DNA of 64,000 nucleotides from an uncultured Thermodesulfobacteriota bacterium (GCA_964542895.1 CAZIWT010000002.1:2730-66729); one strand, 5' to 3'; numbered from the stretch's first letter, positions 3,352 through 48,121 are shown. Notes: a model not told the origin generated them from the sequence alone. Program-made: numbers and translations.

Positions 3352-3580
3352 GATTCTTCTCCTTGAAGAAAGTGTCGAGTGCCCGCCTTTTTAAGGCGGG
3401 CGATAGGGCGCCTTAATCAACGAATTTCAAGCGCACTCTACTCCTCGGATGTTGTGGGAACAGCCGTATGGCCCCACAACATTAAACAGTATCCTTTTCA
3501 GAGAGTATTATCAAAAAAATCAATAGACTGAAGATTTACGGTTTTTCAGCCGCTCTTCAATTTCCAGCATCTCGCTTTCA

Positions 3581-4696
3581 TCACGGCAACCTTTCGAGCA
3601 CGAAGTCCCGTTGCAGCAGCGCGGCCCTGTGGAAATGGTAAAACGGCGACTTGAAATAGTCGTCTTTTATTATCATTTTTCTTCGGATTTCGACACCTTT
3701 GTAATAATCGTCCCAATCATGGCCATCTCCTTTTAAGACTTGAAAAGCGGTTCTCCACCAATCTGTTTTATCGTATTTGAACTTTTCGGGAAACTGGAGG
3801 TCATCAAAGAAGTCGTAAAAGTTATTTCTCCAGTTCTCACACCGATCCTCAAGATCCCTTCCCACGTATTTCAGCTGCTTTTCTATCCTCTTTTTGATTT
3901 CATTCCATTTTTTATAGGGGGTCTTTTGGGTTTCCGACAGTTTTTTGTAGATCGTCTCCGCCGCCTTGAGAAACTCCTTCGTGTTATTACGCGGAACTAA
4001 TTCGCCGGTCGATTTCTTTGTGTATTCCCAGACCAAAAAAGGGTAGTCCGGGTAAAAACCGGCTTCTGCGTGACCTATTCGGGGTCCCGCTTTCCATGGG
4101 ATTTTAATTTTAAATTTACGCTTCATAAGCTTCATCACATTGTTTTTTTTGACCTGGATATCTATCACCTCGTTTTCTTCGTTTTTCCTTCCGGAAAACC
4201 CTTGATGCGCCCAGGTGTCCGCATAGGTGTGCAGGGCTATCCCTATGCGGCAGAGACGAAACAGCTCGAAATCCGTTATCATGGATTCCCAGCATTCACA
4301 CTCCTTTTTTCCCTTGAGGGCCTCTTCTAAAAGCGTATCGGCGAACTTTATGCCGAATTCTTCGGATTTTTTGGTCTTTTTAAGTTGGGCGGGCTCTGTT
4401 ACGTATTCAAATCCCCATCCGGGCGGCTCGTAAAACCTCGGCGGAATGAAATGAAATGAGATTAGAATCTTCTTCTGCTCGGACCAGAATATAGATCTTA
4501 CCTTCAAACCTTTGTGTGCCGTGCGCACCGGATCGATTCTGATGTCGTTAGGGGATTTTTTTATGGGTATTCGTCCGCCTTGCGTTGCGTCGTCGACGTA
4601 TTGTGACGCGTAGGCTATGGTGAGGGCGTCTTTCGAGCTGAAGCCGGCGGCCTTTGCCAAGACTCCTATACAATAATAGTGAAAATCCCTTTGCAT
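3581..4696 (-). CDS. hypothetical protein; possible metal-dependent hydrolase of the Zn-phospholipase C / P1-nuclease-like fold (weak)
   Basis: 371-aa ORF. N-terminal FHYYCIGVLAKAAGF and internal ALHTYADTWAHQGF resemble the W/H...H-x3-D-x4-H metal-site motifs of that fold. Lower GC than neighbours. Confidence 0.45.
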   Translation of the reverse strand: MQRDFHYYCIGVLAKAAGFSSKDALTIAYASQYVDDATQGGRIPIKKSPNDIRIDPVRTAHKGLKVRSIFWSEQKKILISFHFIPPRFYEPPGWGFEYVTEPAQLKKTKKSEEFGIKFADTLLEEALKGKKECECWESMITDFELFRLCRIGIALHTYADTWAHQGFSGRKNEENEVIDIQVKKNNVMKLMKRKFKIKIPWKAGPRIGHAEAGFYPDYPFLVWEYTKKSTGELVPRNNTKEFLKAAETIYKKLSETQKTPYKKWNEIKKRIEKQLKYVGRDLEDRCENWRNNFYDFFDDLQFPEKFKYDKTDWWRTAFQVLKGDGHDWDDYYKGVEIRRKMIIKDDYFKSPFYHFHRAALLQRDFVLERLP

Positions 4697-5901: not shown

Positions 5902-6498
5902 TTTTATCCTCCCTTTGCTTATTTGGTGAATCTATATCCCCGAAGACTCAAGAAGGTCGCATCATTTCCTCACCATATGAAATTCGTATAACCGCTTATT
6001 TGGACGTAAGCTTTCAGCATCTCGGAGCGGACCGAATCAATTAAATCGGATTCGAGTTACGCTTCGCCCGATTTCCTGTCCATTGTGAATGCATTGCCCC
6101 CTTCTTTGTCGAACTTTTCAATCCCTTAATTGGCCCGACGTTTTTATTGAGAATTTTTTTGTCTTTAAGTAACGCCGTCCGCCGAATCGTTTAACTGAAA
6201 AATTATAAATTAGGCATGACAAACAATACGTTATGCTATTGTTTATTTGACCGACGATCTCAAAGCGAGCCTGTATCGCGGGACCTTTTTCAATCCGAAC
6301 CGGCTTTCATCTATTGTAAATTGGTAGACTAATTTCTAATCAGGTTCAAAATGAGATTAGAGGTGAAACGGCGGCTAATCGAAATACGTGAATGAGAAAT
6401 GCTGTGAAGTACAAAGAGATACTTTTTATGGTATATTAATGCAATGTATGTCCAATTGTCAAGACAATAATGACTAAGTCTGGATAAACGTCGCAAAA

Positions 6499-7614
6499 TT
6501 AATCCAGTATTTTAAACCTGAAATACCCCAGGAAGTTCTCGTTTTCATCTACGGGACGCCAGCGCATCTCCGGGTGATGCATTAGGGTCGAGAGCCTCAC
6601 CTTCCTCACCTCGCCCCGGTCGGTTTCCCTCGGCCCCGTGTGGTAGACCACCCAGTCGTCCGTTACTTTCTCGTCGCCGCCGCCGCTGAGATCATCGCCC
6701 CCTTCCTCTGTCCCCCACTCCCCGAGAAATATCATCGCGTGGTAGGGCATCCTCGGATTGTCCGGGTTGAAGTAGAAGATGATATCCCCAGGGAGGACCC
6801 CCTCGCCCCCCTTTCCCAGGGGGACCACGTTGTAGAGGAGGATGTGTCCCGCCGTCGCCGACGGGGAGAATTTCTTGGGATCGCCTTCGATATCTGCTAT
6901 GGAAAATGTCCCGTCCCCGGTCCTGAAGATTTTCTCATTAAGCAGGGGCACGTCCGGGTAGTTGTACTTCTTTATGTCCGGGTTGGCCGGGTTTACGAGG
7001 GCGCTGTAGCTGGATAAGAACCGGGCGTCGTGGAGTTTAAGCGCCTCCGAGTAGGAGAAGCGGATAAGCCCGGCGCAGTCGTTGTTTACATCGGCCCAGC
7101 GGCGGTTCTTCTCGTAGACCTGAGATTCGCCCACGGCACAGAGCCACCGCCTGAAGTTGAGGCGATCGGTGTCTCCGAAGAGCTCCACAACGTCGGGAAA
7201 GCCGTCCCCGTCCCCGTCGCGGTAGTCGGGTATGACCTTAAATGTCGCCTCTCCCCCTTTGAGGCCGTCGGAGTTTGCGGTAATTTTCACGCCTCCCGCC
7301 TCGAAGGTAGAGATAAAGGTGAGATCCTTTTCCCCCCCCTCGAGCGTAACGGGCGTTTTTTCTATCATCAGGACGTCTGCGCCCGAGACCGAGACTTCGA
7401 CCGGAATTTCCGCGTTCTTGACGGTCCTGCTTTTATCGTCCACGGCCCTTATCGTCACGGTGAGGGTCTCCTCCCCGTTGGCGTGAATCTCCCCCTTCGA
7501 GGCCTTAAGATCAAGGCTTTCGGGACTCCCGTAGCAGGAGGCAAAAAGGAGGGCCAGAAGACAGAGAAGCAACCTCCCCCGGAAATAACATCTGTCCTGC
7601 CTTTTTTCCCTCAC
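6499..7614 (-). CDS. lipoprotein with Ig-like (Big) domain and C-terminal NlpC/P60-like (possibly DUF1175-type) Cys-His domain
   Basis: Signal peptide with lipobox LLFASC. Big-like beta-rich segment. Then [10 protein letters not shown] ... GDIIFYF ... YHAMIFLG in the order typical of papain-like NlpC/P60 folds. Confidence 0.45.
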
Positions 7615-7634
7615 CTTCCCCTCCCCGGCGGTTT

Positions 7635-9404
7635 TCAGTCGAGGTCTTTTGCGACGAGTCTGAACTTCCCCTCAACCGCGTCTTCACCGAAGTTTATGCC
7701 GCCGTAGAACGAGACGAAGGATTGTCTCGTAAGCTCAAGCAGGGGGATGAATCTCTTTTCCGCGTCCTCGTAGAGGAAGTAGCGGTAGTGAGCGTTCAGG
7801 TTGATTATATACTTCTCTACGGTGTTCGTGAGGTTTTCGCCCGACAGATAGGCGTAGAGGTCGTAGCTTCCCAGGGGGAGGTCATTCTGGGCGTCGACGT
7901 AGGGGCCGCTCTTTACGAGGAAGTCCTCGTCAAAAAGCCCTTTGCCGCCCGTCTCGTTTATACTATTGAGTACGGGGGCGTTCAGCAGCCGTCCTATAGT
8001 CGATATGTCCCTGTAGAAATAGAGCCTGTTGCCGTTAAGGGCGAAGCCCGGGTTGGCCACTCTGGTCTTGATATATTTGCTGCCGCTCCAATCCACCTCC
8101 TCTTCCCACAGCTCGCCCATGTAGTGGAGGGCGGCCCCGCCGTACTCGAGGTAGCTCGGGCCGTCGTCCCAAAAGGCGTAGTCGAAGATATTCGAGAGGT
8201 TCTCGGAGACCGCCTCCTCTCCACCCTCCTTCACGCCGAGGCAGGAGAACACCTTTACGTACGGCTCTCTCCCCTCGTAGCCGATTCCCGTCACCGCCAG
8301 AAGGGTTCCCCCCGTAATGTTGCTCAGGACACCCCCCTCGAAATCAAAGCCCGCCTCGGTCTTCCACTTCTGGAGGATCGACACGTAGTTTACCCGCTCA
8401 AAGACGCCGGAAAACCAGTTCTTGATGAAATTTGCGTAGAGGATGGCCGGGTCGTAGGAGTTAAAGGCGACAAATCCCGCCGTCTCCGACGGGAGATATT
8501 CTATCTCGGGCGCCGGTTTTTTACCGACCTCTCCAAGGCCGGAAAGGACCTTGTCTGTATATCCGGACTTCAGGGGTGCGTAAAGGCTCACGTCGGCGCC
8601 GTTTTCGGTGAAAGTTGTCGAGGTGAAGATCGAGTCGACCTCACTAATAAGCCTCTCGCCCCTTTTCAGGAGGCCCGTCTCGTAGGCCGCCGGCTCCGAT
8701 ATTTTGTGATAGATCAACACGTGGTATCCGGCGGGGATTGCGGCCGCCCCCGCTTTGAAGCCGGGGTCGTTCACGATGGTGTCGCCGCCGCCGGAAAGCG
8801 CATCGTGTTGGACCTTGAGCGCCAGGGAGGAGTCGGAAAAAATAACGTGGCTCGCCGTTATGGCGTAATAGACTTTTTTGTCTCCCGCATTTGCCGAGTA
8901 GACGGAAAGCCCGTCGATCTCTTCTCTTGAGATATTGTCTTTGAGGTTGGATAAGGTCTTGAGCAGAAACCTCTTGAGCCAGCCGATCTCGAAGACCGCC
9001 ACCGCCGCCCTGCCGCCGCCCGCCCGGGTTTTGTATATTGCGGCTTCCTTTCCTATCAGCAAGAGGGCCCTTCCCGGGGTGATCGAAATACCGAGGGATT
9101 TCTCCATATCCCCCAAAGTGGAGATCGCCGGGGCCGAGACGTCGGTCCTTATCGGTCCCTTTAAGACGGACAGGTCTTCCGCCTCGCCGTAGAAGGTGCT
9201 TTTGAGAAACGGTTTCAGGCCCTTCTTGATATCCTTGAAATATATCAGCGTCTCCGCTCTGCCGGAGACCTTATCGATAAGCCCCCCCGCTTCGCTTCCC
9301 GCCGCGGGGCCTATCAGGAGTGCACAGGAGATAAAAATCGCGATGGGAACCGTGATTAAAAACCGGATCCCCCTTGACGAATTACGACGCGATTTCGTTT
9401 TCAT
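7635..9404 (-). CDS. large secreted or membrane-anchored hypothetical protein (possibly DUF2138/YfaA-like)
   Basis: 589-aa ORF with an N-terminal signal anchor. It abuts the 6499..7614 gene with a 20-nt gap. No recognisable catalytic motif. Confidence 0.4.
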
Positions 9405-9428
9405 AGCGATCCTCCTTTGTTATTTCAG

Positions 9429-10031
9429 CTATTTATTCGGGGATTCGGCCGAATAGGACTCCGGCAGTACCCCCTGTTTCAGAAGGATGTTGCTGAATCT
9501 GAGACAGACTATTTCCAATACCTTTTCCCTTTTGGCTTCAGGGATCATCTCCGTAAGCTCCGTGAGGTCGTCGAAGAAATCTTTCAGTTTTTCATCGACG
9601 CTCTCTTTCACTTCACCGTATGATTTTACCGTATTGCCGAGAGATCTCCGAAGCGTCAGGTATTGCTCCCTCTCCGCTTTCAGAATATCGTCGAGGGAGT
9701 CGACTTTTTCCTCCCCCTCCGATTCGTCACCGTATTCATCGTCCGAGTGGTAGTAATCGTAGGTCTCTATCGGGACGTAGAGGCGGTTTCTCGCCCGGAT
9801 GAATAGTTTCCACTCCTTTTTTGTCATCTCCCCCTTCTCGAAGGCGAGCTCCGGGGGCTCTGAATCGTCTTCGGAGATCGCGGCGACGACGTCGGCGAAC
9901 ACCCCCCCCTTTTTCACCGCCTCGGTCGTATCTCCCGCCGGTGATATCTTTTTCTCCCCACCGCACGAGACGAGAAGGAGCGATATAAGGAGCGGGACCA
10001 AAAGAAAAAAGCCTCTATTTATCGATTTCAT
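9429..10031 (-). CDS. lipoprotein, hypothetical, acidic
   Basis: Signal peptide with lipobox LLVSCGG. Acidic stretch DDEYGDESEGEE. 4-nt overlap with the upstream ABC ATPase. Confidence 0.5.
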   Translation of the reverse strand: MKSINRGFFLLVPLLISLLLVSCGGEKKISPAGDTTEAVKKGGVFADVVAAISEDDSEPPELAFEKGEMTKKEWKLFIRARNRLYVPIETYDYYHSDDEYGDESEGEEKVDSLDDILKAEREQYLTLRRSLGNTVKSYGEVKESVDEKLKDFFDDLTELTEMIPEAKREKVLEIVCLRFSNILLKQGVLPESYSAESPNK

Positions 10032-10933
10032 AATAAACTCCCCGAATTTGTGGCACTATTTTTTTTTAGGGCGCCTGACGCCCCCTTTAAGGCGGACAGG
10101 ATCTCCTTCAGGGCGTCCTCTGCCTTATAGGTGTCTGTATTAACGTCCCATCCTCTCTCCTTGAGGCGGATCAAGAGCTCCGTGACCTCCGGCATAAAGC
10201 TCCCAAGGTGTTCTTCGGCCTCCGGATCGGAAAAGAGCTCGGAGGAGGGGCAGTCCGCCGCAACCTTTCCGCCTCTCAGGATTATTATCCGGTCGGCCGC
10301 GTTTATGATCTCTTCTATTACGTGGGAGATCAGTATTATCGTCTTCCCTTTTCTGTTCAGCTCCTTTATGTTTCCGATGGTCTCGGTTCTCGACTCGGCG
10401 TCGAGTCCCTGGGTGGGCTCATCGAAAATGAGGATATCGGGATCGACGGAAAGTATAGATGCGATGGCCACCTTTCTCTGCTCACCGCCCGACAGCGTAA
10501 AGGGGGAGCGGTTTTTAAGGGCGTCGTAGTCGAGGTTGACGAGATCCGCCGCCCTCCTCACCATCATTTCGATCTCCTTTTCGTTAAGCCTCTCCTTTTT
10601 ATGTCTCAGGCCGAACTTCAGCTCCTTCTGGACCGTCTCCTCGAAGAGCTGGTGCTCCGGATACTGGAATACCAGCCCGACCCTCTCTGTCAAGGCCCCC
10701 GTCTTCTTTGTGTCCGGCCCGACAACGAAGTCCCCGACGCGGACGCTGCCCGCCGTCGGGATGAGGATGCCGTTCAGGTGTAGCGCCAGGGTCGTCTTCC
10801 CGGAGCCGGTCTCCCCGATCAGGGCGACGAACTCCCCCGCCTCGATCTCGAGACTTACCCCTGAAAGCGCCTCCTTTTCAATGGGTGTTCCCCGATTGAA
10901 GTGCTGGTACAGATCTTTGATTTCGATGAGCAT
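10028..10933 (-). CDS. ABC transporter ATP-binding protein, ECF/CbiO-like
   Basis: Walker A GETGSGKTT, signature LSGGEQRKVAIA, Walker B ILIFDEPTQGLD. Confidence 0.85.
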   Translation of the reverse strand: MLIEIKDLYQHFNRGTPIEKEALSGVSLEIEAGEFVALIGETGSGKTTLALHLNGILIPTAGSVRVGDFVVGPDTKKTGALTERVGLVFQYPEHQLFEETVQKELKFGLRHKKERLNEKEIEMMVRRAADLVNLDYDALKNRSPFTLSGGEQRKVAIASILSVDPDILIFDEPTQGLDAESRTETIGNIKELNRKGKTIILISHVIEEIINAADRIIILRGGKVAADCPSSELFSDPEAEEHLGSFMPEVTELLIRLKERGWDVNTDTYKAEDALKEILSALKGASGALKKNSATNSGSLL

Positions 10934-10939
10934 AAAGCT

Positions 10940-11227
10940 TTAAGACGACACCTTAAAGACCATATCTCCCGGCCTTACCCTCTCGCCCACCTTGATACCC
11001 ACAAGGGAGCCGGAGGGGGCTTCCGCAACCTGTTTATTTTCCACCTCCATCGACTCGACCACCTCTGTAAAATCGGTTGTGGCGCCCTTGTAGTGAAGCT
11101 CGTCTCCCACCTTGATAGCGTCGTCGGTTACCTTGATGGCGGCGACGCTCGGCTTGGCGAAGAATTTGACTATTTCACCTACCATGACTTCCTCGGACAT
11201 CGATTTCCTCCTAAAGATCGAAAACAA
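10940..11227 (-). CDS. small hypothetical protein with EF-Tu domain-2-like beta-barrel character
   Basis: 95 aa. VGEIVKFF...GDELHYKG...GIKVGERVRPGDMVFKV. Only 2 codons (TAA stop) separate it from the downstream ABC gene in the same frame. Confidence 0.4.
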   Translation of the reverse strand: MFSIFRRKSMSEEVMVGEIVKFFAKPSVAAIKVTDDAIKVGDELHYKGATTDFTEVVESMEVENKQVAEAPSGSLVGIKVGERVRPGDMVFKVSS

Positions 11228-11352
11228 TCGGGATATTTAGATTAACTTCGCTGTCTCTTCCTCAAGATTGTAAGATTATTTTCACGTTAGACATATCTAT
11301 ATAGAAACGGATCTCGCTGAATATCGACGGAAGAGGGCCCCTCCCGATCGAT

Positions 11353-12789
11353 TTAGATCGCCCCCATGGCCTTAAGGATCCCCTTGGTCAGATTCGAGAT
11401 CTCGCCGTCCGTTATCGTCCTCGGATCGATGATCACCCTCTCCTGAGCGATGCGGGAGATTATCGGCGGATCCTGTTCCCTCAACATCTCCTCCAGCTTG
11501 TCCGGGCCGATCTCGTTTGGAAATATCAAGACCACCCTCGTGGGGATATCCGCCGTGGGAAAAGACCCGCCCCCCGGCTGAGAAAAATCGTCCGCGCTCA
11601 CCACGTCGAACCCGGGGTGCGGTACGCTGTTTATCTTCCTTACTATCTTCTTGACCCTCGCCTGTGTCTTGTCGTAGGGCATCGTGATCATCGAGAGGGC
11701 GGGGATCTTCTTCAGCGCGATCTCGACGTCCCTGTACATTAGAAGCGTGGCCTCCGCCGCCGCCAGGGTGAACTTGTCGATCCTCAGCGCACGGTTGAGG
11801 GGATTCTGCCTCACCTTTTTAATTGTCTCCTCTTTGCCCAAGATGAAGCCGGCCTGACCGCCGCCCAGAAGCTTGTCTCCCGAAAACGTAACGACGTCCA
11901 CTCCCGACTTCACGGTCTCGACGACCGTCGGCTCTTTCGGGAGGCCGAACCGGGCGAGATCGACCAGACACCCGCTCCCCAAATCTTCCACCACAGGGAT
12001 ATTATGCTTTTTGGCGAGCTTCACGAGCTCCGATGCGGGGACGTCCTCAGTGAACCCGACGATTCTGTAATTGGACGTGTGCACCTTCAAGATCATTCCG
12101 GTTTCCGGCCCGATAGCGGCCTCGTAGTCGGAGAGCCTTGTCCTGTTTGTCGTCCCCACCTCTTTCAGCCTTGCGCCGCTCTTTTCCATTACGTCCGGGA
12201 TACGAAAGGCGCCCCCGATCTCCACGAGCTCGCCCCGGGAGACTATGACCTCCTTCCCGTTTGACAGGGTGTTGGCTACAAGGAGGACGGCGGCGGCGTT
12301 GTTGTTTACGATGATGGAGGACTCGGCCGTCGTGATCTCACCTATCAGCTTACCGATGTGATCGTAGCGGGAGCCCCTCTCCCCCTTGTCCAGATCGAAC
12401 TCGAGGTTTGAATACCCCCCCGCTATCCTGATGACGTTATCCAGAACGTCCCTTCCGAGGGGCGCCCTGCCGAGGTTCGTGTGGAGCACGATCCCGGTGG
12501 CGTTAATGACCGGTCTCAAGGTGGTCTTGTGGGATGTCAGAAGCCACTCCTCAATAAGGGAGATCATGGACGACTCGGTAACATCGACCCCCTCGTCGTC
12601 GGAGAGGAGTCTTTCCCGGGTAATTGAGATCGCCTCCCGAACGGCCCTCTTCACCACCTTCTTGGAGTATTTGTCGACGAGGTCTTCCACCTTCGGGTGC
12701 ATAAGGAGCTTGTCCACCGCGGGAAGGGTGGAGAGCTTCTCCTTTAAGGCCGAAGCATCCTCTCCTTTTTTAACGGCTTCTTCGGTCAT
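11353..12789 (-). CDS. selA: L-seryl-tRNA(Sec) selenium transferase
   Basis: VINATGIVLHTNLGRAPL block, PLP-lysine region and ~470 aa length typical of SelA. Confidence 0.8.
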   Translation of the reverse strand: MTEEAVKKGEDASALKEKLSTLPAVDKLLMHPKVEDLVDKYSKKVVKRAVREAISITRERLLSDDEGVDVTESSMISLIEEWLLTSHKTTLRPVINATGIVLHTNLGRAPLGRDVLDNVIRIAGGYSNLEFDLDKGERGSRYDHIGKLIGEITTAESSIIVNNNAAAVLLVANTLSNGKEVIVSRGELVEIGGAFRIPDVMEKSGARLKEVGTTNRTRLSDYEAAIGPETGMILKVHTSNYRIVGFTEDVPASELVKLAKKHNIPVVEDLGSGCLVDLARFGLPKEPTVVETVKSGVDVVTFSGDKLLGGGQAGFILGKEETIKKVRQNPLNRALRIDKFTLAAAEATLLMYRDVEIALKKIPALSMITMPYDKTQARVKKIVRKINSVPHPGFDVVSADDFSQPGGGSFPTADIPTRVVLIFPNEIGPDKLEEMLREQDPPIISRIAQERVIIDPRTITDGEISNLTKGILKAMGAI

Positions 12790-12987
12790 GATATTAAAAA
12801 TCCGAAAAAATTAGAAATAATCGGTTTTATCTTTCTCCGAAGGCTCATTGTTATAAGACGACACTATTTTATAGCATAAATAAACTATTTTTCAAGTAAA
12901 ATAAAGAGATCGGGGAGATTGCAGAGATTGTATAGATTATATAGATTAATATTGCGGCGGGTTTTACCGCCGTGCTATAAAGGGGCT

Positions 12988-39667: not shown

Positions 39668-41263
39668 TCAGGAGTCTTGATACTTTTCCACCAAAAGGTA
39701 TTTCTTGATTTTCCCCGTGGGAGTTCTGGGTAAATTTGTGGTAAATATGAACTTCTTCGGAGTCTCGAATACTTTGAGCCTTTCCGAACAGTATTGCCGA
39801 AGGTCTTCTTTCTTTATATCCATTCTGGGATTTCTCATTACTACGGCCGCAAGTATTTCCCCCTCTCGTTTTTCTTTAAGGGCGATTACGGCACAATCGA
39901 TAACCGCCTCATTCGATTTTATAACGTTTTCCACGTCCAACGAGGGGATATCGTTCTCCCCAATGGTCAACGTGTCCTCCCTCCTTCCCATAATATAAAG
40001 GAATCCGTCTTCATCGAATCTGCCGATATCACCGGTGTGAAACCAGCCGTTCACAATGGTCTCCTCGGTTTTCTCTTTGTTCTTCAGGTATCCGGTGGTC
40101 TGGGCGATATTTTTCGCCGTGATCTCCCCTTTTTCCCCGATCGGTGCGTCTTTCCCGTCGTCACGCAGGATCTTGACCTCCGATCCAAAATAGGGGGTGC
40201 CGATGGATCCCGGCTTTTTCCTCTTCTCCTCCGGCCCGATACCGGTCAAAAGCCCGCATTCGGAAAGCCCGTAGTATTCATAGACGTTTGGACAAAGCCG
40301 CTCGTATACCTTCTTAAGCAGATCTTCGGAGAGGGGCCCGCCGGTAAAGATCAATCCCCGAAGGGAGGAAAGGTCGAATTTGTCGAGGTCCGGGAGCTTC
40401 ATTATAACGGAGGCTATGATGGGGATCCATGTCGTGACGGTGACCTTCTCCCGCTGGATTATCTCGAGGATCTTTACCGGGTCGAAGTTGAGGATCACGT
40501 TTTTCGCCCCGATGAAGAGCCCCACTCCGCACCAGCTGAAGCCGGACCTTCCCGTTATCGGTATGACCGTCAGGATGGTATCGTCTGCGGTTACGTCGTG
40601 GGCGAAGGCGAAAAAGGGGAGTGCCGCAAAGTTGGCACCGTGTGTGATAAGAAAAGGCTTCGGCAGTCCCGTTGTCCCGGATGTCATATTGATAAACTCG
40701 TTGTCCCTGCTTACCACGACAACATCCGGCTCATCCCTGGACGCACTCTGTATCAACTCTTCATAGGGCGTAGCGAATTCGGGAGGATCATCACCGATGT
40801 ATATATAGTGCTTGACATTGGGAAGGGAGTCGAGGGCCTCGAGGAGCAGCTTCCTCGAGTCTTCGCAGAAGACCACGGTATCGGCGTCCGACAGATTTAT
40901 GTAGTCGATCATTTGGGGCCGTTCCATCTTGTAGTTCAAGGGGAGGCCGATGACACCCGTCTTTGCCAGGGCCCCGTATGTCTCGAATATTTCGGCCCGG
41001 TTGTCGATCAGGAAGGCGCAGGTGTCCCCTTTTTTCAACCCCATTTCAATAAGGGCGTTGCCGATACGGTTGATGCGGTCGTTGAACTCCCTGAAAGTAA
41101 ACCTCCTTCCCGTTTTGACGCAATATATCGCCTCCCTGTCACCGTATTTTATGGAGGCAATTTTAGCAAGATTGCCTACTCCTATTTCGTGTTCCGAGTA
41201 ACTCATTTTTCCTCTAAAGAAAAAAGACTCAACGATCCATGAAACGCCTGACAAATCTTCCAA
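39668..41263 (-). CDS. AMP-dependent synthetase/ligase (acyl-CoA / fatty-acyl-AMP ligase family)
   Basis: TSGTTGLPKP AMP-binding motif, GEI, GWFHTGDIGRFDEDGFLYIMGRRED. Overlaps the upstream peptidase ORF by 35 nt. Confidence 0.85.
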   Translation of the reverse strand: MEDLSGVSWIVESFFFRGKMSYSEHEIGVGNLAKIASIKYGDREAIYCVKTGRRFTFREFNDRINRIGNALIEMGLKKGDTCAFLIDNRAEIFETYGALAKTGVIGLPLNYKMERPQMIDYINLSDADTVVFCEDSRKLLLEALDSLPNVKHYIYIGDDPPEFATPYEELIQSASRDEPDVVVVSRDNEFINMTSGTTGLPKPFLITHGANFAALPFFAFAHDVTADDTILTVIPITGRSGFSWCGVGLFIGAKNVILNFDPVKILEIIQREKVTVTTWIPIIASVIMKLPDLDKFDLSSLRGLIFTGGPLSEDLLKKVYERLCPNVYEYYGLSECGLLTGIGPEEKRKKPGSIGTPYFGSEVKILRDDGKDAPIGEKGEITAKNIAQTTGYLKNKEKTEETIVNGWFHTGDIGRFDEDGFLYIMGRREDTLTIGENDIPSLDVENVIKSNEAVIDCAVIALKEKREGEILAAVVMRNPRMDIKKEDLRQYCSERLKVFETPKKFIFTTNLPRTPTGKIKKYLLVEKYQDS

Positions 41264-41909
41264 CCGACCCCTTAATGATTCCGTATGTAAGATTTGCGGA
41301 ACTCAAACGGGCGAGGACGCCGCCAAACCGGGGTTTTACGAGACCCTTTCCCTCACGCCTTATCATCGTGACCTTGAGGATCCCGTCGCCCTTGAGGATT
41401 CGGGGGGTGTCGGGATCGGTCATGTTGTCCCCCTTGGTTGTAACCGTGAGGTTCTTTTCGTTTTTCCTGATATTGCTCTTACCGATATTAATAACACGGT
41501 GGGCTATATATCTCTCCTCTTCCGGGAAGCACACTATGTCACCAGGCTTAATATTTCCCCCCCTCCCGTCCACTTTTATTACGATGAGGGTATCCCCGGG
41601 CCTTAAAGCCGGGTACATGCTGTAGCCGAAAAAGGGAACCGACCTTATATCTTCCGATCTCACGCTTCTGATCTCACAAACCGGCCTAAAATCAGGGTTT
41701 GAGGCCGCCGACGCATCCGGCGCCGGAGGGAATGCCGCCGCCCCTGCATCCCAGGGCGTTAAAATTTCCATCACGGCACTGTCCCGCATAAGGATTCCCG
41801 CCACCCGCACAATTTCCCGTGGCTTGTCCGCCTCCGGTACAAAGGCTTGAAGCCTGATTTCCGCCGCGGCATATTGATTGTCCCAGCGCCTGGACTCTAT
41901 CCACCTCAA
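41229..41909 (-). CDS. S24/S26-family (signal-peptidase/LexA-like) serine peptidase, probable leader peptidase; start ambiguous
   Basis: FGYSMYPALRPGDTLIVIKVD ... GDIVCF ... YIAHRVINIG matches the S-M-x-P...GD...K/H catalytic arrangement. The ORF-track start is TTG at 41909, which overlaps precursor A. Internal candidate starts are at 41789, 41771 or GTG 41663. Confidence 0.55.
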   Translation of the reverse strand: MRWIESRRWDNQYAAAEIRLQAFVPEADKPREIVRVAGILMRDSAVMEILTPWDAGAAAFPPAPDASAASNPDFRPVCEIRSVRSEDIRSVPFFGYSMYPALRPGDTLIVIKVDGRGGNIKPGDIVCFPEEERYIAHRVINIGKSNIRKNEKNLTVTTKGDNMTDPDTPRILKGDGILKVTMIRREGKGLVKPRFGGVLARLSSANLTYGIIKGSVGRFVRRFMDR

Positions 41910-41949
41910 GGGCTATCACCATCGGCGGCTCGTAAATTTTCTTCTTCAT
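41692..41949 (-). CDS. RiPP precursor peptide A (leader KKKIYEPPMVIALEVDRVQALGQ; 6-Cys Gly-rich core)
   Basis: 85 aa. Core SIC-x9-C-x9-C-x10-C-x9-C-x10-C with CxGG repeats. The leader is almost identical to precursor B. Confidence 0.6.
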   Translation of the reverse strand: MKKKIYEPPMVIALEVDRVQALGQSICRGGNQASSLCTGGGQATGNCAGGGNPYAGQCRDGNFNALGCRGGGIPSGAGCVGGLKP

Positions 41950-42031
41950 AAAATTGGTTACCTGAAAATACGTCTAAAAGCAGTAAAAAGTATCATGATC
42001 ACACAAAAAACCCCTCACTTTATTTTACGCC

Positions 42032-42265
42032 TTATTGATTGCTACCCGTTAAGTATTGACTGGACGCTGAGCTATCGTCCCTGCAATTCCCCTCGGCGGT
42101 GGAGCCGATCCCGCAGTTGTTGTTCGGTCTGGCGCCGGACCAGCGGTTATTCGGTTGCGCTCCCCCCCCGGTACATATATCCATTGACCGACAGCCTAAA
42201 TCCCATTCTCGTTGAGCTCAATGATCGTAGTTGATTGATACAACTTGGTTTTTAATCTCTTCTTT
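42032..42265 (-). pseudogene. degenerate third precursor-peptide paralog (nonsense + frameshift)
   Basis: The minus strand reads ...LYQSTTIIELNENGI*AVGQ, aligning to KKYEPPKIIDMNVDYVQALGQ with TAG where the paralogs have CAG (Gln). After a G8 homopolymer the next frame gives NNNCGIGSTAEGNCRDD with the C-x9-C spacing. No ATG. Confidence 0.35.
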
Positions 42266-43254
42266 TATGTCCTCTCTCTAAAAAAAGTCAAAGGATTAAT
42301 GCTGCGGGTAAAATGGATATTATGAAATGGAAAACGCTCTACTATCTCCCTTACCAATGTAAAGGTCTCTTTCGCCTCTCTTTCGGGGAAGTATCTGAAG
42401 AAGTGGATATGATTGTGCAGAATCCTCAACATTGCCTCCCCGGGTTTGATCTCTTCCAAATAATCATCTTCATCCTTTATCAGGAAGAAGAATCTCTTCG
42501 CTGAAACAGTCTCCCCACAGTTTTTTCTGCTTGACACCTGGGTAAATGGGGACGGCATCGTATAGTAGCACCTCCCCCGCCGAAATAAGAGAGAGCCGTC
42601 GTCGGCCAGGAGCCTATCCTTCCCTATGAGATCGGCGATGGTGCTCTTTCCCGCTCCGGATCCCCCGAAAAAGATATATCCCCCGCCATTGATTTCCGCC
42701 GAACAGGCGTGAAGCATCATACCTCCGTACAGCGGGGCGAAAAGCCCGACCGTCGCCTGAACAGCAAGGGATATGGTAGAGGCGTCGTCGAAAAAGCCAC
42801 TTTTTAATAAAAAAACCTCTCCCGAGGGTCTATCATAATTGATTAACAGGAGAAATGAGTTGTGGTGTAGGACTGCTATCCTGTCCTTTTTAAGTAGTGG
42901 TGTTAGATACGGAAATCCTTGAGACTCCACATTATCCTTCGACTTTACACGTCCCATTCTACTACTTCCCCTTTTCCAGCCGAAGGGGAGTTGACCGAAA
43001 GGGAACCTCTTCTCTACTCTGAGGAAATAATTTTCTAAAGCCCTGATCTCATCTCCGTTAAAGAGGCTTTTTAAAGGGACATCACTCCATTCTTGTATGA
43101 CAAGGGGGAATCTTTCTTCTCTGTTAGATAATATGTAATCCGAAAACTTCTTGGTTATGGCCTCCATAAACCGGTTATCATCTTCGCCTTTATAAGTTAT
43201 TTCGAGTTTTACCCCTCCTATATCGATATTAATCGAGATCATTCCAATTTTCAA
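42265..43254 (-). CDS. HPr-kinase-related kinase (HprK C-terminal-domain-like)
   Basis: P-loop FFGGSGAGKST plus a downstream LLADDGS-type segment, as in HprK/lasso-peptide kinases. 329 aa. Confidence 0.55.
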   Translation of the reverse strand: MKIGMISINIDIGGVKLEITYKGEDDNRFMEAITKKFSDYILSNREERFPLVIQEWSDVPLKSLFNGDEIRALENYFLRVEKRFPFGQLPFGWKRGSSRMGRVKSKDNVESQGFPYLTPLLKKDRIAVLHHNSFLLLINYDRPSGEVFLLKSGFFDDASTISLAVQATVGLFAPLYGGMMLHACSAEINGGGYIFFGGSGAGKSTIADLIGKDRLLADDGSLLFRRGRCYYTMPSPFTQVSSRKNCGETVSAKRFFFLIKDEDDYLEEIKPGEAMLRILHNHIHFFRYFPEREAKETFTLVREIVERFPFHNIHFTRSINPLTFFRERT

Positions 43255-43319
43255 ACACTAAAATAGTCTTCAAAATCTCATTGCCCAACTAATTGAACGA
43301 AAATTTAATTTTGATGAAA

Positions 43320-43664
43320 TCAGCTTGGCACAGATCCCGTGGTGCAGCTCCCGGCAGGGATGGTCCCCGAATCGCACCTGCCGCCGAAGGCCGTTGTACC
43401 CGCCTTACACATACCTCCGAAGGCCATACCGCCGCTCTGACACTTCCCGCCGGCTCCGCTGGGATCGCCCCCCGCCTGGCAGCGGGCACCCGCGGAGCTA
43501 CCGGATTGGCACTTTCCCCCATAGGCCATATTACCGAACTGACACATCGTTTCCGCAGACGGCCCGGTGTTACACTGTCCGGGTGTAACCGTCTGCCCCA
43601 GCGCCTGAACGTAATCCACATTCATATCGATAATCTTCGGTGGCTCATATTTCTTCTTTGTCAT
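43320..43664 (-). CDS. RiPP precursor peptide B (leader MTKKKYEPPKIIDMNVDYVQALGQ; 8-Cys Gly-rich core, C-terminal Ser)
   Basis: 114 aa. Core repeats C-(Q/N/K)-(S/A/T)-G...G-(K/R/M) with Cys every 9-12 residues. Ends ...TTGSVPS. Confidence 0.6.
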   Translation of the reverse strand: MTKKKYEPPKIIDMNVDYVQALGQTVTPGQCNTGPSAETMCQFGNMAYGGKCQSGSSAGARCQAGGDPSGAGGKCQSGGMAFGGMCKAGTTAFGGRCDSGTIPAGSCTTGSVPS

Positions 43665-43693
43665 GGAGTTTCCCCGAATGTTAAAATCAAAAA

Positions 43694-43719
43694 AAAGTTA
43701 GTTTAAAATGAAGGTCGTT
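43694..43719 (-). promoter_or_regulatory. perfect 7-bp inverted repeat (GGTCGTT-N7-AACGACC) in the 5' region of precursor B
   Basis: Lies 30-55 nt upstream of the precursor B start, within a 248-nt AT-rich gap after the rSAM gene. Confidence 0.3.
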
Positions 43720-43912: not shown

Positions 43913-44995
43913 TCATATAATTCTCGTCTCCGGGAAGATGCCCATCTCGTACGCCTCCTGGCAGATGCGGTCAGGAGCGGAGAGATCCCCGTGAAGCACG
44001 TAGGCGTTCGCCCTGCACGAACCGAGGCACAATCCCTTCAAGATACACCTCCCGCAGATACCCTTCATGTTGTCGGGCACAATCCTCCTCAATTCCGACA
44101 AGACAGGGCTTTTTCTCCACAACTCTTCAAGATTGTCCTCCCTTATATTTCCTATAACGAGTTCCGGCACCTCCTTTCCTATCCCGCAGATGGATATGTG
44201 CCCGGATGCGATTATGCCGATTATGTTGAGGATGTGACACTGGGCGTTGTTCCCATTGAAAAAGGAGTCTATCTTTTTGAAGGCCGATGGTATGGTGAAG
44301 TAGGTCTGGATATCGTACTTCTCCTTCAGATCGTTTTCCACCCACGAAGATAACCTGATAAGCTCATCGACAGGGACCGTCTTTCCCCCTTCCGTCAATT
44401 TCCCTCCCCTCCCTATAGGCATCACCGGGTTGAACTTGACCGAGTTGGCGTTGAGGCGCTTTGCCATGTCGACAACCCCCTCGATATCCCCGGAGTTGTC
44501 CCCTATCAGGCTCATGATGATCTGTACCCTCAATCCCTGGCTCACCATATTCTCGACGCCCGTAACCGCATCATCCCACGAACCCTCAACGCCGCGAAAG
44601 GAGTCGTGAAACTTGGGGTTGATGCTGTCGATGCTGACGCTTATCGAGGATGCATTGCTCCGCTTCAAGAAGGCCGCCGTATTTTCGTCTATCAGGGTCC
44701 CATTTGTCTCGATATCCATCACGAGCTCTTCCGACGATATTACCTCGATTATCTCGAATATCTCCCTGTTGATAAACGGCTCTCCCCCGGTGAGCTTTAT
44801 GTTGAAAAGGCCTATCGGCCTTCCCTCTTTTATGATCTTCCTTACGTCGTCAGCCGTTATTCCGTCGGGGGCATCTTCGGTCTCCGGCACGAAGCTCGGG
44901 GTCAGCCAGCAGTGGGAGCACTTAAGGTTACAGCCCGAGGTCAGGTACAGATAGGCCGAATTCAATCGATAGCTCGGTTTTTCATCCGATTCCAT
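43913..44995 (-). CDS. radical SAM / SPASM-domain peptide-modifying enzyme
   Basis: CNLKCSHC (CxxxCxxC), GGEP. C-terminal Cys set QCHIL...ICGIG...ICGRCILKGLCLGSC typical of SPASM auxiliary clusters. Confidence 0.85.
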   Translation of the reverse strand: MESDEKPSYRLNSAYLYLTSGCNLKCSHCWLTPSFVPETEDAPDGITADDVRKIIKEGRPIGLFNIKLTGGEPFINREIFEIIEVISSEELVMDIETNGTLIDENTAAFLKRSNASSISVSIDSINPKFHDSFRGVEGSWDDAVTGVENMVSQGLRVQIIMSLIGDNSGDIEGVVDMAKRLNANSVKFNPVMPIGRGGKLTEGGKTVPVDELIRLSSWVENDLKEKYDIQTYFTIPSAFKKIDSFFNGNNAQCHILNIIGIIASGHISICGIGKEVPELVIGNIREDNLEELWRKSPVLSELRRIVPDNMKGICGRCILKGLCLGSCRANAYVLHGDLSAPDRICQEAYEMGIFPETRII

Positions 44996-46142
44996 TCTCG
45001 AGCTCCTCGGTGTAAAGCTTGTAACAGCAGAACGGATCCCTGGCGAGCATCGTCCCGTAGGCGGAATACGCCGAGGCGGGGCACCCGGCGGTGCACATGG
45101 GAGCGTATCGGCAATCTCTGCAGGTAGAAAGGCTTGTCACCGGGGTCGTGAATCTCTTTCTGAACTCCACAAAGGTCTCGGACTCCCTCCAGATAATATC
45201 GAGGGGGGTGTCGAGGATATTTCCGGCCGTGATCTCCGGGAGGCGGTCGCAGGGGACCGCCCAGCCGTCCGGTCTTATGGCGCACTGGTTTTTTAAGGCA
45301 CCGCAGCCGGAGAGGAAGTGCGTGTTCGGATCGTAATTCTTGAGGTTATCAGGATTGATGTTTCTTATCCCCTCGAAAATCTCGTCCATCTCGAAAAAAG
45401 TCCCGGAGATAAACGGGTAATCACACCTTATCTCCTTTAACTCCTCGACAATCCTTTTTATCTCGACGGCGTCGAGCTTAAGCTCCTCCATATATTTCAG
45501 TCCCCGCCCCTCGTATAACAGGTAGTTGAACTTTACGCTCGAAATACCCGTGTCTGCCGCCAGCTCCGCTATGGCCTTCAGTTCCCTGAAATTGAGCCGG
45601 GTTACGGTGCAGTAGGCGCTGACATCGTGCCCGAATCGTATGAGATGCTTTATCCCGTTAAGGGCCGCCTTGAAGGCCCCGCTTCCCCTCAAAAGGTCGT
45701 GGGAGCTTGGTCCCGCCCCGTCGAGGCTGACCATTATGTCGTCCATCTTCCTGATGTACTTGGTGAGCCTCTTGGCAGCTCCTTCGTCTATCAATGTGGC
45801 ATTAGTGTTCAGGGAAATTCTCAAGGGCTTGCTGTAAAAGGCGTCCAAGATATCGTAGAAATCCTCCCGGACGAAAGGCTCCCCCCCGCTTATCTTTACC
45901 CTCAAGATCTTGAGCCTCTTTATCTCGTCGATAAAATCGAGCCACTGTTCGGTCGTGAGGTCCGGGCCGTAACTGAAGCCGTCCGAGTAGACAGCGCAGT
46001 GCTTGCACGCCTGGTTGCACCTCGACGTAATCGAGACAAAGAGGGACATCGGTGTCTTCGGTATCTGCGGGGTATAGGATATATCTAAAGTGTCGGAAGT
46101 CTCGCCCGCCGCAATGCCCCTTCCCATACTGTCTGTTTCCAT
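44982..46142 (-). CDS. radical SAM / SPASM-domain peptide-modifying enzyme (second copy)
   Basis: CNQACKHC, GGEP. C-terminal GCGALKNQC...PC...CRDCRYAPMCTAGCP. 14-nt overlap with the downstream rSAM gene. Confidence 0.85.
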   Translation of the reverse strand: METDSMGRGIAAGETSDTLDISYTPQIPKTPMSLFVSITSRCNQACKHCAVYSDGFSYGPDLTTEQWLDFIDEIKRLKILRVKISGGEPFVREDFYDILDAFYSKPLRISLNTNATLIDEGAAKRLTKYIRKMDDIMVSLDGAGPSSHDLLRGSGAFKAALNGIKHLIRFGHDVSAYCTVTRLNFRELKAIAELAADTGISSVKFNYLLYEGRGLKYMEELKLDAVEIKRIVEELKEIRCDYPFISGTFFEMDEIFEGIRNINPDNLKNYDPNTHFLSGCGALKNQCAIRPDGWAVPCDRLPEITAGNILDTPLDIIWRESETFVEFRKRFTTPVTSLSTCRDCRYAPMCTAGCPASAYSAYGTMLARDPFCCYKLYTEELENGIG

Positions 46143-46460: not shown

Positions 46461-46809
46461 TTACTACGACTCCCTTTTTGAAGAATTCAACGTATATCCT
46501 TTTTACGTCCTTAAAAACCGTATCGAACTCCTCGCCGTACATCTCCCCTATGATCCTCGATACCCCGTTTACGTCGATCTTCCCGTTCGTTTTCGAGTAG
46601 ACCTTTGAAGCCGTTTCGTTGATCAAGATGGAAGTCCTTCTCTCCGAATCGAAGAGGAGGCCCTCTCCACCCTCAAACTCGACCGAGAGTATGTGGGGAC
46701 CTTTTTTGAATATGGTGCCCCCGCTAACCGGCGGTGGTTTCGGTACCCTCGGATTTTTTGCGCTTTTGTTTCTGATGAAATCTATTGCTTGCCTTAAAAT
46801 GGGCGGCAT
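46447..46809 (-). CDS. second PqqD-like protein (divergent)
   Basis: 120 aa. LLFDSERRTSILINETASKVY...GVSRIIGEMYGEE...VFKDV..IYVEFFKKGVV. 14-nt overlap with the adjacent RRE gene. Confidence 0.45.
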   Translation of the reverse strand: MPPILRQAIDFIRNKSAKNPRVPKPPPVSGGTIFKKGPHILSVEFEGGEGLLFDSERRTSILINETASKVYSKTNGKIDVNGVSRIIGEMYGEEFDTVFKDVKRIYVEFFKKGVVVNGKQ

Positions 46810-47960
46810 TACCCTTTCCTGCGAAAAAAGATGCCGAAGAGAGATTTCAGGAGGTGGATCGTTCTCAAAAAATAGAGTTTTACCATTTCCCCACGATCCG
46901 CAACCCTTCCCTGCTCCCTAAAAAGAATACTTCTTTCGGGGAAAAGCAACTCATTATAATAATAGAACTTTTTTCTTGAATTGTCAATATCTAAGCCCAA
47001 TAGGATATCGCCGAACTGGAGGGAGCGCCTGCTCCCGATCGCCGCCGATATCAGCCTCCTCTCGATTGGGCCGGGCCTGAAACCGGAGACTTCGTTTGGC
47101 TTTAGGGGAAAACCGAACCGCTCCGTTATGATCCAGAGCATCTTCCCGACGACCTTTGACAATTTGCCGGAGGCTATCATCTCAAAGAGGAGATCGGTGG
47201 AAAACCTGTCGCCGAGGCATTCGATCACCCTCCCCACATCCATAAACCAGTAGTTCATAAGATAGGAGTGTTTCAGGGCGTGTTGGGCCGAGATTATTAT
47301 TGTGTGGTAGGGATTGGGAGAAAGGTAATCGGCGTCCCCTATTTTAACTTTTTCGGCCGACGCGAATATCTCGTCTGTGGATAGGGTCGGGAGATACTCT
47401 CTCGCCCTTATCCTCCCCTCGTCGATTATCTCTGTGTGGAGGTCAAAGTAAAGAGAACCTTTCGACCAGTGGGCCGGGATTTCCCCCCCGGGTTCGGTCG
47501 TAAACGGCTCGTACCCCGCCCCTCTCAATATCTCGGATGCCTTCCTAATGTCGCATCGATAGACCAGAATATCGGCGTCGGTGGTGGGCCTTATCCTGAA
47601 ATCGTTGTAGTAGCGGTTGATGATGTCGTGACCCTTGATGAGGACCGCGTTTATCCCCCCATCATTGAACAGCTTGAATATCGCCTCGAGCTCCCGCTTC
47701 ATCGCCATGTTCAACAACTCCGTACGGGCAAGCGTCGTCCTGGCCCTCTCAAACTCCGCCTCGTCGATAAGGGAGAGGAGCCCCCAGTCGGTCAGGGCAG
47801 AGATCAGTATCCCGAGGGAGCCCTTGTCCACGGTAAAGGGAACGAGGTCTTTCGGAAGCCTCTCAATTTGCGGGGTGGGCGCCGGGGTGTTCCCTCCCCA
47901 AGCCCATCGGCTTGCCAGGGCGAGCCCGATTATCTCGCTTGCACTTAGAGATAGAGCCAA
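46809..47960 (-). CDS. nucleotidyltransferase-family protein (PF14907-like), TTG start
   Basis: LIKGHDIINRYYNDFRIRPTTDADILV segment. GGAGG 6 nt upstream of TTG at 47960. 1-nt overlap with the following gene. Confidence 0.5.
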   Translation of the reverse strand: MALSLSASEIIGLALASRWAWGGNTPAPTPQIERLPKDLVPFTVDKGSLGILISALTDWGLLSLIDEAEFERARTTLARTELLNMAMKRELEAIFKLFNDGGINAVLIKGHDIINRYYNDFRIRPTTDADILVYRCDIRKASEILRGAGYEPFTTEPGGEIPAHWSKGSLYFDLHTEIIDEGRIRAREYLPTLSTDEIFASAEKVKIGDADYLSPNPYHTIIISAQHALKHSYLMNYWFMDVGRVIECLGDRFSTDLLFEMIASGKLSKVVGKMLWIITERFGFPLKPNEVSGFRPGPIERRLISAAIGSRRSLQFGDILLGLDIDNSRKKFYYYNELLFPERSILFREQGRVADRGEMVKLYFLRTIHLLKSLFGIFFRRKG

Positions 47961-48091: not shown

Positions 48092-48121
48092 TTGACAAAG
48101 GAGCCTCAATAAAAGTATAAT
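48092..48121 (+). promoter_or_regulatory. strong sigma70-type promoter TTGACA-N18-TATAAT
   Basis: TTGACA 48092..48097 and TATAAT 48116..48121, about 36 nt upstream of the 48158 ATG. Divergent from the RiPP operon. Confidence 0.55.

Follow-up and report, generated by a model that had tools for sequence, protein, structure and literature searches.

Two tandem-repeat peptides as probable precursors of a SynChlorMet-like radical-SAM system in an uncultured Thermodesulfobacteriota bacterium

A 64,000-nucleotide stretch of DNA from an uncultured Thermodesulfobacteriota bacterium (GCA_964542895.1, CAZIWT010000002.1:2730-66729), the whole of which is referred to below as the window, carries on its minus strand two short genes for cysteine-rich, repeat-containing peptides, designated precursors A and B. 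Both are real, coding and conserved precursor peptide genes. Very probably, their products are the ribosomally made, ScmA-like substrates of a radical-SAM (S-adenosylmethionine) system that resembles the SynChlorMet (Scm) cassette and that generates a peptide made on the ribosome and modified after its translation (RiPP).

The precursor genes and their peptide family

The first-pass annotation of the window described two open reading frames (ORFs) on the minus strand that encode peptides with six and eight cysteines, and they are present as described (Table 1). Precursor A starts with MKKKIYEPPMVIALEVDRVQALGQ and runs on into its 6-Cys core; precursor B starts with MTKKKYEPPKIIDMNVDYVQALGQ, followed by the 8-Cys core. 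The two are related at E=5e-17 (BLASTP), and a position-by-position count of their leaders returns the figure that had been given for them, 16 identities in 24 positions. Cys-Cys spacings are 10, 10, 11, 10 and 11 in A and 10, 11, 10, 13, 11, 11 and 10 in B: the proposed C-x9-11 periodicity runs throughout both peptides, interrupted by a single x12 gap in B. The repeat had also been written more fully, as C-polar-(S/A/T)-G-x4-6-G-(K/R), a formula that suits B but not A. The lack of an acidic residue at +4 from Cys had been remarked upon for most of the repeats and extends to all of them: no Cys of A or B has Asp or Glu at that position.

Comparison with orthologues establishes the coding status of the two genes. 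On L022, a contig from the European Nucleotide Archive (ENA), there is an orthologue of B, P0001, with 95% identity (P0002 and a peptide of locus L012 are also relatives). Differences between the two genes at codon positions 1/2/3 number 5/1/26; they leave 23 codons with synonymous changes only and 6 with non-synonymous changes, and all 8 Cys are kept. Orthologues of A that are 68-85% identical occupy the same position in L001, L002, L003 and L011; another relative is P0004. Compared with L002, the differences in A are 5/10/32, and the changes are synonymous in 26 codons and non-synonymous in 13; the same third-position bias is seen against L001, L002 and L011, and long stretches of the core are identical in L001 and L002. 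The start codons of A and B are intact and Shine-Dalgarno-like purine runs lie upstream of both.

Repeats of GC-rich glycine codons can leave long frames open by chance, and A and B might be such frames, with the real gene on the opposite strand or in a 226-amino-acid (aa) ORF. Plus-strand ORFs of 137 and 87 aa do exist, and the 226-aa ORF (41229..41909, minus strand) overlaps A. Moreover, public gene calls on the same sequence (L030) include B but not A, having chosen that ORF instead: a 226-aa 'Peptidase_S26' call (L030 4259..4939) crosses precursor A in another frame. The substitution patterns nevertheless favour the A and B frames. Read as the plus-strand ORF 43293..43706, the differences amount to 6 synonymous against 23 non-synonymous codons, and read as 43325..43588, the ORF that the first-pass annotation had singled out as a possible real coding frame, to 0 against 27. 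Neither is under purifying selection, and both were rejected as the real gene. Only one antisense frame has a synonymous excess (20/8); it has its wobble positions in common with the sense frame and is closed by stops, and its longest ORF has 39 codons. The 226-aa ORF was rejected as well: its extension is not conserved, orthologous peptidases being 139-162 aa long and beginning after the precursor, and the true start of the peptidase is most likely the GTG at 41663. Considering also the roughly 110 homologous peptides described next, it is extremely improbable that A and B are chance frames.

A profile made from A, B and four relatives was searched against 1.84 billion representative proteins (E<=1e-3). 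It found 142 matches, of which approximately 110 are peptides of 60-125 aa with the same leader and repeat. The family leader has a basic N-terminus, then (K/R)-x-P-Y-E-(P/K)-P-x-(I/L)-x-(D/E)-L, and it ends in one of two ways: V-D-x-x-Q-A-x-G-(Q/A)-(S/T), as in the window, or G-G-x-A-(Y/H)-A-(Q/A). Cores with 4-8 Cys are found in 106 of the 112 family peptides, and the repeat can be written C-x-x-G-x-x-(A/P)-x3-4, with G at +3 in 93% and A or P at +6 in 78%. Neighbouring cysteines are 10 residues apart in 279 gaps and 11 apart in 189 (together 468 of 562), and Asp and Glu make up only 3.9% of core residues. The database model for ScmA (TIGR04252) matches 30 of the 112 peptides at E<=0.01, with 4e-10 as the best value. 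C-termini differ: they are ...VPS in B, ...TPT in the L012 peptide and K-P or K-[ST]-P in peptides of type A.

As many as three precursor paralogues occur in this lineage, arranged B, C, A; the repeats of type C are Trp-rich (C-W-x-G-G). Type C is intact in L024 (1367..1757), where TCG (Ser) is at the leader/core junction and an A-type gene comes next. In L001 (~7495..7765) and L011 (1118..1492) the leader is intact and TAG is placed exactly at the junction. The window copy is a pseudogene: what remains of its leader has no YEPP, no start codon and an in-frame TAG; TGG occupies the junction position; and a second TAG is accompanied by a +1 frameshift into the Cys/Gly core (ORF 42032..42184). 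TAG is a common stop (12 of the window's 43 long ORFs end with it) and the L024 copy is intact, so these TAG codons are nonsense mutations rather than recoding. Pyrrolysine insertion or other TAG read-through was accordingly rejected for type C, the window copy being, in addition, frameshifted.

It could also be that only one of A and B is a working substrate and that the other is a paralogue in the course of being lost. One precursor gene, type C, has already decayed here and has a premature TAG in L001 and L011, and B is absent from the nearest syntenic clusters, L001 and L002. That would sit poorly with the 23 synonymous against 6 non-synonymous codons and eight retained cysteines of B, with the same substitution pattern and long identical core stretches of A, and with the start codons and purine runs of both genes, and we regard the loss of either as improbable.

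The SynChlorMet cassette and the recurrence of the cluster

The Scm cassette is defined in databases by NCBIfam models TIGR04248-TIGR04252 (ScmD, ScmC, ScmE, ScmF and ScmA, in that order) and by Pfam PF27840 (ScmC). The definition is reportedly owed to comparative genomics work by D. Haft, done in silico only. Scm models are the best NCBIfam matches for five window cluster products. The ScmD-like protein scores 49.4 bits with TIGR04248 (cut-off 100), the ScmE-like protein 235.3 bits with TIGR04250 (cut-off 400), the ScmF-like protein 366.4 bits with TIGR04251 (cut-off 400) and the ScmC-like protein 24.7 bits with TIGR04249 (cut-off 125). Precursor B scores 16.4 bits with TIGR04252 (E=0.0078, cut-off 35), a model to which precursor A has no match. 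PF27840 is recorded for P0005, a public protein 100% identical to the window ScmC, and for all its homologues.

A canonical cassette, L027, was recovered by searching with the leader, and its precursor combines a homologous leader with 14 repeats; the ScmA model does not match this precursor either. The neighbourhood typical of the Scm cassette, in which genes for PqqD, a pair of radical-SAM/SPASM enzymes, an HprK-like protein and a small Cys-rich peptide lie close to one another, is also found in the window. Like the window peptides, the L027 precursor has the leader motif YEPP-x-I-I-D-L and the repeat C-x-x-G-x-x-A. (The ScmF gene of L027, at 2654..3960 on the minus strand, is split into two ORFs that score 358.5 and 180.6 bits with TIGR04251, owing to a frameshift or else to faulty assembly.) In contrast with the canonical cassette, the clade to which the window cluster belongs has another PqqD besides the first, genes for an NTP_transf_5 enzyme, an S26 peptidase and also an AMP-ligase, and up to three precursor paralogues; its leaders end in V-D-x-x-Q-A-x-G-Q and those of canonical Scm precursors in G-G-x-A-Y-A-Q. 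Since the Scm scores are below cut-off in the window and far higher in L027 (115.7 bits for its ScmD and 563.8 bits for its ScmE), the window cluster is, as judged from sequence, homologous to the Scm cassette and a distinct sister clade of it.

The first-pass annotation would have given up its reading had the two ORFs failed to recur next to radical-SAM and PqqD genes in related genomes. Locus searches with the ScmC protein (a 14-sequence alignment) and the precursor leader as queries found about 20 independent related loci in which homologous peptides do lie beside PqqD and radical-SAM/SPASM genes. These loci are mostly in Candidatus Zymogenus/Zymogenaceae, 'Deltaproteobacteria' and Thermodesulfobacteriota metagenome-assembled genomes (MAGs), or on unassigned metagenome contigs. 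The nine-gene order is identical in 11 loci, in 10 of which a homologous precursor follows ScmC, and some 10 more have partial or rearranged versions; in tblastn searches with the window proteins, gene order is kept down to ScmC identities of ~27-30%. A motif scan places a peptide directly after ScmC in L001-L004, L011-L014, L016-L018, L020 and L023-L025. Homologues of the nucleotidyltransferase (tblastn) are present in 16 loci, in 11 of them at the same position. Gene fusions tie the accessory genes functionally to the system: in L017 the S26 peptidase and NTP_transf_5 are joined in one protein of 564 aa (8205..9899), and a 205-aa double-PqqD protein with two PqqD stretches is encoded in L005/L006 (5117..5734) and in L013 (4095..4712). 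The double-PqqD fusions also identify the 120-aa ORF of the window as a second leader-binding domain.

In the window the cluster lies on the minus strand, between 47960 and 39668, and has 11 parts: nine genes plus two additional copies of the precursor. The order is nucleotidyltransferase, 120-aa PqqD-like protein, 92-aa PqqD, two radical-SAM/SPASM enzymes, B, ScmC, the decayed precursor, A, S26 peptidase and AMP-ligase.

Table 1. Parts of the window cluster, from first gene to last
Feature	Position	Strand	Basis or description
NTP_transf_5 nucleotidyltransferase (uncharacterised family), first gene	46809..47960	-	PF14907, 99 bits
Second PqqD-like RiPP recognition element (RRE) protein, 120 aa	46447..46809	-	Orthologues and fusions
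PqqD-family RRE, ScmD-like, 92 aa	46182..46460	-	PF05402, 50.5 bits
Radical-SAM/SPASM enzyme, ScmE-like	44982..46142	-	Pfam Radical_SAM and SPASM; TIGR04250 best NCBIfam match
Radical-SAM/SPASM enzyme, ScmF-like	43913..44995	-	TIGR04251 best match; SPASM cysteines
Precursor B	43320..43664	-	114 aa; leader residues 1-23/24; 8 Cys; 8 repeats C-x-x-G-x-x-A/P
ScmC-like P-loop protein with phosphoenolpyruvate carboxykinase (PEPCK)/HPr-kinase fold, putative peptide kinase, 329 aa	42265..43254	-	PF27840 on the identical P0005
Decayed third precursor ('type C')	41950..42264	-	Three-frame translation
Precursor A	41692..41949	-	85 aa; 6 Cys; 6 repeats; C-terminus G-x-K-P
Soluble S26 peptidase, signal-peptidase-I-like, Ser/His type, putative leader peptidase	41229..41663	-	TIGR02228, PF10502
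AMP-forming acyl-CoA-ligase-like enzyme (AMP-ligase), probable member	39668..41206	-	PF00501, PF13193

The ScmE-like protein has the motif CNQACKHC and a C-terminal Cys cluster, and the ScmF-like protein has CNLKCSHC; the ScmF gene overlaps the ScmE gene by 14 nt. For the 120-aa PqqD-like protein, the window copy has no NCBIfam or Pfam family match; its orthologues have weak or faint PqqD matches. The AMP-ligase is taken to start at an ATG that gives 512 aa, as in its orthologues. It comes directly after the S26 gene in L001, L002, L003, L004, L011, L013, L014, L020, L023 and L025, a position that is kept even where ScmC identity is ~30%, and in L004 it is duplicated (9748..12943). An ADP-forming CoA ligase gene on the other side of the cluster is conserved among close relatives only. 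Housekeeping genes (trigger factor, ClpP, ClpX, Lon) flank the cluster. A scan of the window for promoters and terminators gave counts not above those of shuffled sequence; its matches include a sigma-70-like one (12/12, at 48092..48121 on the plus strand, the count again not above shuffled) upstream of the divergent ADP-forming CoA-ligase gene, and another (11/12, at 46987..46959 on the minus strand) inside the end of the nucleotidyltransferase gene and upstream of the PqqD genes.

Three further observations concern other loci. In L006, a Zymogenaceae MAG, the peptide after ScmC (8960..9163) keeps the leader FEPRAIIDLQVDHTRAVGAS, contains only one Cys and a tail rich in Arg and Pro, and looks frameshifted or decayed. 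In L028 (~5975..6330) a family peptide with the leader ...PYEPPKIIDLVTGTAYAQ and 8 Cys has no Scm enzyme gene detected in the ~6 kb to each side of it; this could be an orphan precursor or one whose enzymes have diverged strongly. Several Scm-type clusters, the canonical one included, adjoin genes of polysaccharide export or chain length (Wzz/GNVR, Wzy_C, Poly_export or a PEP-CTERM-type exporter; L027 10138..11406, L005/L006 1..3873, L007 2859..4499), which may hint at a link of some of these clusters to the cell envelope; the window cluster has no such neighbourhood.

Candidate steps of maturation

Sactipeptide and ranthipeptide systems are recognised by a SPASM/twitch radical-SAM enzyme, an RRE and a Cys-containing core, and this combination is present; neither a C-x-x-x-D/E acceptor motif nor a characterised maturase family above cut-off was found in the window cluster. 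The closest solved structure, for the ScmE-like enzyme (E=1.5e-14) as for the ScmF-like one (E=1.7e-13), is SkfB, followed by PqqE, CteB and SuiB. Models of thioether synthases are not reached: PapB (NF047865) at 75 of the 340 bits of its cut-off, StsB at ~90 of 625 and AlbA at 81 of 850.

Streptosactin (GggA/GggB) offers a comparable ring geometry: a SPASM radical-SAM enzyme forms its Cys25-Ser28 and Cys31-Gly34 rings (PMC8172795). It is a type II sactipeptide, with small unnested rings, and its C-x-x-G spacing is that of the invariant pair in each window repeat. Streptosactin has two rings in a 14-mer, made by one enzyme, whereas the window system has 6-8 repeats and two enzymes; streptosactin also comes without kinase, nucleotidyltransferase and S26 peptidase, and the score of the StsB-type model, only ~90 bits, shows no specific sequence relationship. 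The freyrasin/PapB ranthipeptides are similar in that the precursor consists of tandem repeats with one Cys each, and PapB makes a small thioether ring from each repeat. The PapB acceptor motif, however, is C-x-x-x-D, and the window peptides have no D or E at +4. Thuricin CD (TrnC/TrnD) has two radical-SAM enzymes and two related precursors in one cluster (PMC12093266). In contrast, window-type clusters keep two enzymes even with a single intact precursor, and the arrangement is therefore not simply one enzyme per peptide.

In the sequence of events that we propose, the two PqqD-type proteins, by binding the YEPP leader, would deliver the core to both SPASM radical-SAM enzymes, which would modify every repeat. 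Binding of the leader by PqqD-type proteins and a crosslink chemistry unlike that of Cys-Asp/Glu ranthipeptides had both been suggested in the first-pass annotation, and the sequence is consistent with either suggestion. That each repeat would acquire a small Cys-derived thioether ring, for example from the Cys sulfur to the C-alpha of Gly+3, is put forward tentatively, as a real possibility just short of an even one; it is favoured because the Cys...Gly+3 spacing matches the streptosactin rings. A and B could, instead, be radical-SAM substrates that receive no thioether. They might carry formylglycine (as made by anSME), thio-oxazole (as with SbtM), C-C or C-N cross-links to Gly or Ala, or free cysteines that bind metal or an Fe-S cluster. 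For both enzymes, all thioether-synthase models score lower than those of AhbD, NirJ2, MftC, WgkB and GeoRSP; radical-SAM enzymes always occur as two different ones; the cores are without the acceptor residues, acidic or Asn, that known ranthipeptides use; and, with no exporter, the product may act inside the cell. Set against these points are the single invariant Cys of each repeat with its fixed Gly+3, which is the geometry of small sactionine rings, and the place of SkfB, a sactisynthase, as the closest solved structure for both enzymes. A product free of thioethers is thus conceivable, though on the doubtful side.

For removal of the leader, the S24/S26-type protease that the first-pass annotation suggested has a counterpart in the cluster: an S26 homologue is encoded directly downstream of A, and tblastn finds the gene in all but three of the mapped loci (one of the three, L007, has an otherwise different cluster). 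The protein passes the archaeal/ER-type signal peptidase I model TIGR02228 (54.6 bits, cut-off 51.85), and the catalytic boxes S-M-[YW]-P, H-R and K-G-D-N (S12, H52-R53 and K74-G-D-N77) are invariant in 7 of 7 aligned orthologues. Only ~14 residues precede the catalytic Ser (12-15 in most orthologues). By length, this leaves no room for an N-terminal membrane anchor, and cytoplasmic action is therefore expected. Signal peptidases require small residues at -3 and -1. The cleavage site had been placed at ALGQ|S/T. The small-residue rule itself stands, and it fits A-L-G, so that a cut one residue earlier, ALG|Q, is likelier than GQ|S. Of 122 family peptides, 93 have A-x-[GA] ahead of their first Cys; in A and B it is A-L-G. 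On these grounds the anchor-less S26 peptidase would probably remove the leader after A-x-G (ALG|Q). To our knowledge, no anchor-less cytoplasmic signal peptidase I homologue serves as leader peptidase in a characterised RiPP pathway.

ScmC is a candidate tailoring enzyme. Its AlphaFold2 (AF2) model (pLDDT, the predicted local distance difference test score, 82) matches ATP-dependent PEP carboxykinase (1e-7) and HPr kinase/phosphorylase (HprK/P; 1.5e-5) in Foldseek. H182, G197, G202, K203 and D218 are invariant in both of the alignments that were made. In the one with 24 sequences (A1), S199 and G200 are nearly so and D219 is not listed; in the closer one (A2), D219 is invariant too and S199 nearly. 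The features that mark HprK-type RiPP kinases, a P-loop (here G197-x-S-G-x-G-K203), an upstream His, an Asp-Asp pair and an HprK/PEPCK fold, are thus all present. TTG 43254 and ATG 43242 are the candidate starts, the public call (P0005, 300 aa) beginning 29 codons later; they are favoured because the 25-29 codons upstream of that call encode two conserved beta-strands (pLDDT 72-90) that align with homologues.

In the biosynthesis of pseudomycoidin, PsmK phosphorylates the peptide and is inactivated by D158A/D159A, and PsmN, an 'uncharacterised nucleotidyltransferase', adds hexose to the phosphorylated peptide (PMC6993621). Pseudomycoidin and paeninodin have in common with the window system an HprK-family P-loop protein with an Asp-Asp pair and a nucleotidyltransferase in a RiPP cluster. 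They differ from it in their lasso scaffold, the window cluster having no lasso cyclase, and ScmC differs from the PsmK type in its two-domain PEPCK-like fold. PsmN is presumably a member of PF14907, the family of the window nucleotidyltransferase. By analogy with PsmK and PsmN, ScmC might phosphorylate the peptide and the NTP_transf_5 enzyme might then add onto the phosphate, a suggestion that we make with some reserve. The AMP-ligase may acylate the product, a weakly supported last step.

Several points weigh against the reading of A and B as precursors of an Scm-like thioether-forming system. None of the five Scm models reaches its curated cut-off, so this is not a canonical cassette. Likeness to thioether synthases is weak and generic, the AhbD, NirJ and MftC models scoring higher, and the constant presence of two radical-SAM enzymes suggests two different reactions, of which a thioether covers one. 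No exporter or immunity gene lies near the window cluster, an absence that is unusual for an antibiotic-type RiPP. Canonical L027 has an A-Y-A|Q junction and no S26 gene nearby; the A-x-A/G motif is therefore no proof of cleavage by a cluster peptidase. In HprK-type lasso peptide kinases the phospho-acceptor is the C-terminal Ser; B ends in Ser and A in Lys-Pro, so the kinase analogy would seem to be imperfect. Finally, in the literature library that was searched, no experimental work on the Scm cassette, its models or any member was found, which makes every chemical step proposed above an inference.

Significance of the cluster

Family databases have listed the Scm cassette for years, with models that are of little help with the substrate. 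What the window presents is a kind of system that those databases already hold in uncharacterised form, to which its cluster adds conserved genes and defined substrates. A well-conserved sister clade is now defined, with a peptidase, a kinase-like enzyme, a nucleotidyltransferase and a ligase of its own, and ~110 peptide clusters (at 50% identity) are joined into one precursor superfamily in which the invariant positions, Cys, Gly+3 and Ala/Pro+6, are specified. A more ambitious proposal would make this a new RiPP class, in which two cooperating SPASM enzymes turn each repeat into an undescribed kind of unit, the HprK/PEPCK-fold and NTP_transf_5 proteins phosphorylate and decorate the product, and an anchor-less cytoplasmic peptidase releases it; we consider it possible, with more to be said against it than for it.

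The window cluster is, then, a good target for reconstitution and not a categorically new system. A and B are two short natural substrates and come with a likely cleavage site and a minimal set of enzymes for heterologous expression. Should the chemistry prove to be new, it would give a RiPP class from anaerobic, uncultured bacteria of the Desulfobacterota type; should it be thioether formation, the small-ring chemistry of sactipeptides and ranthipeptides would be extended to long tandem arrays.

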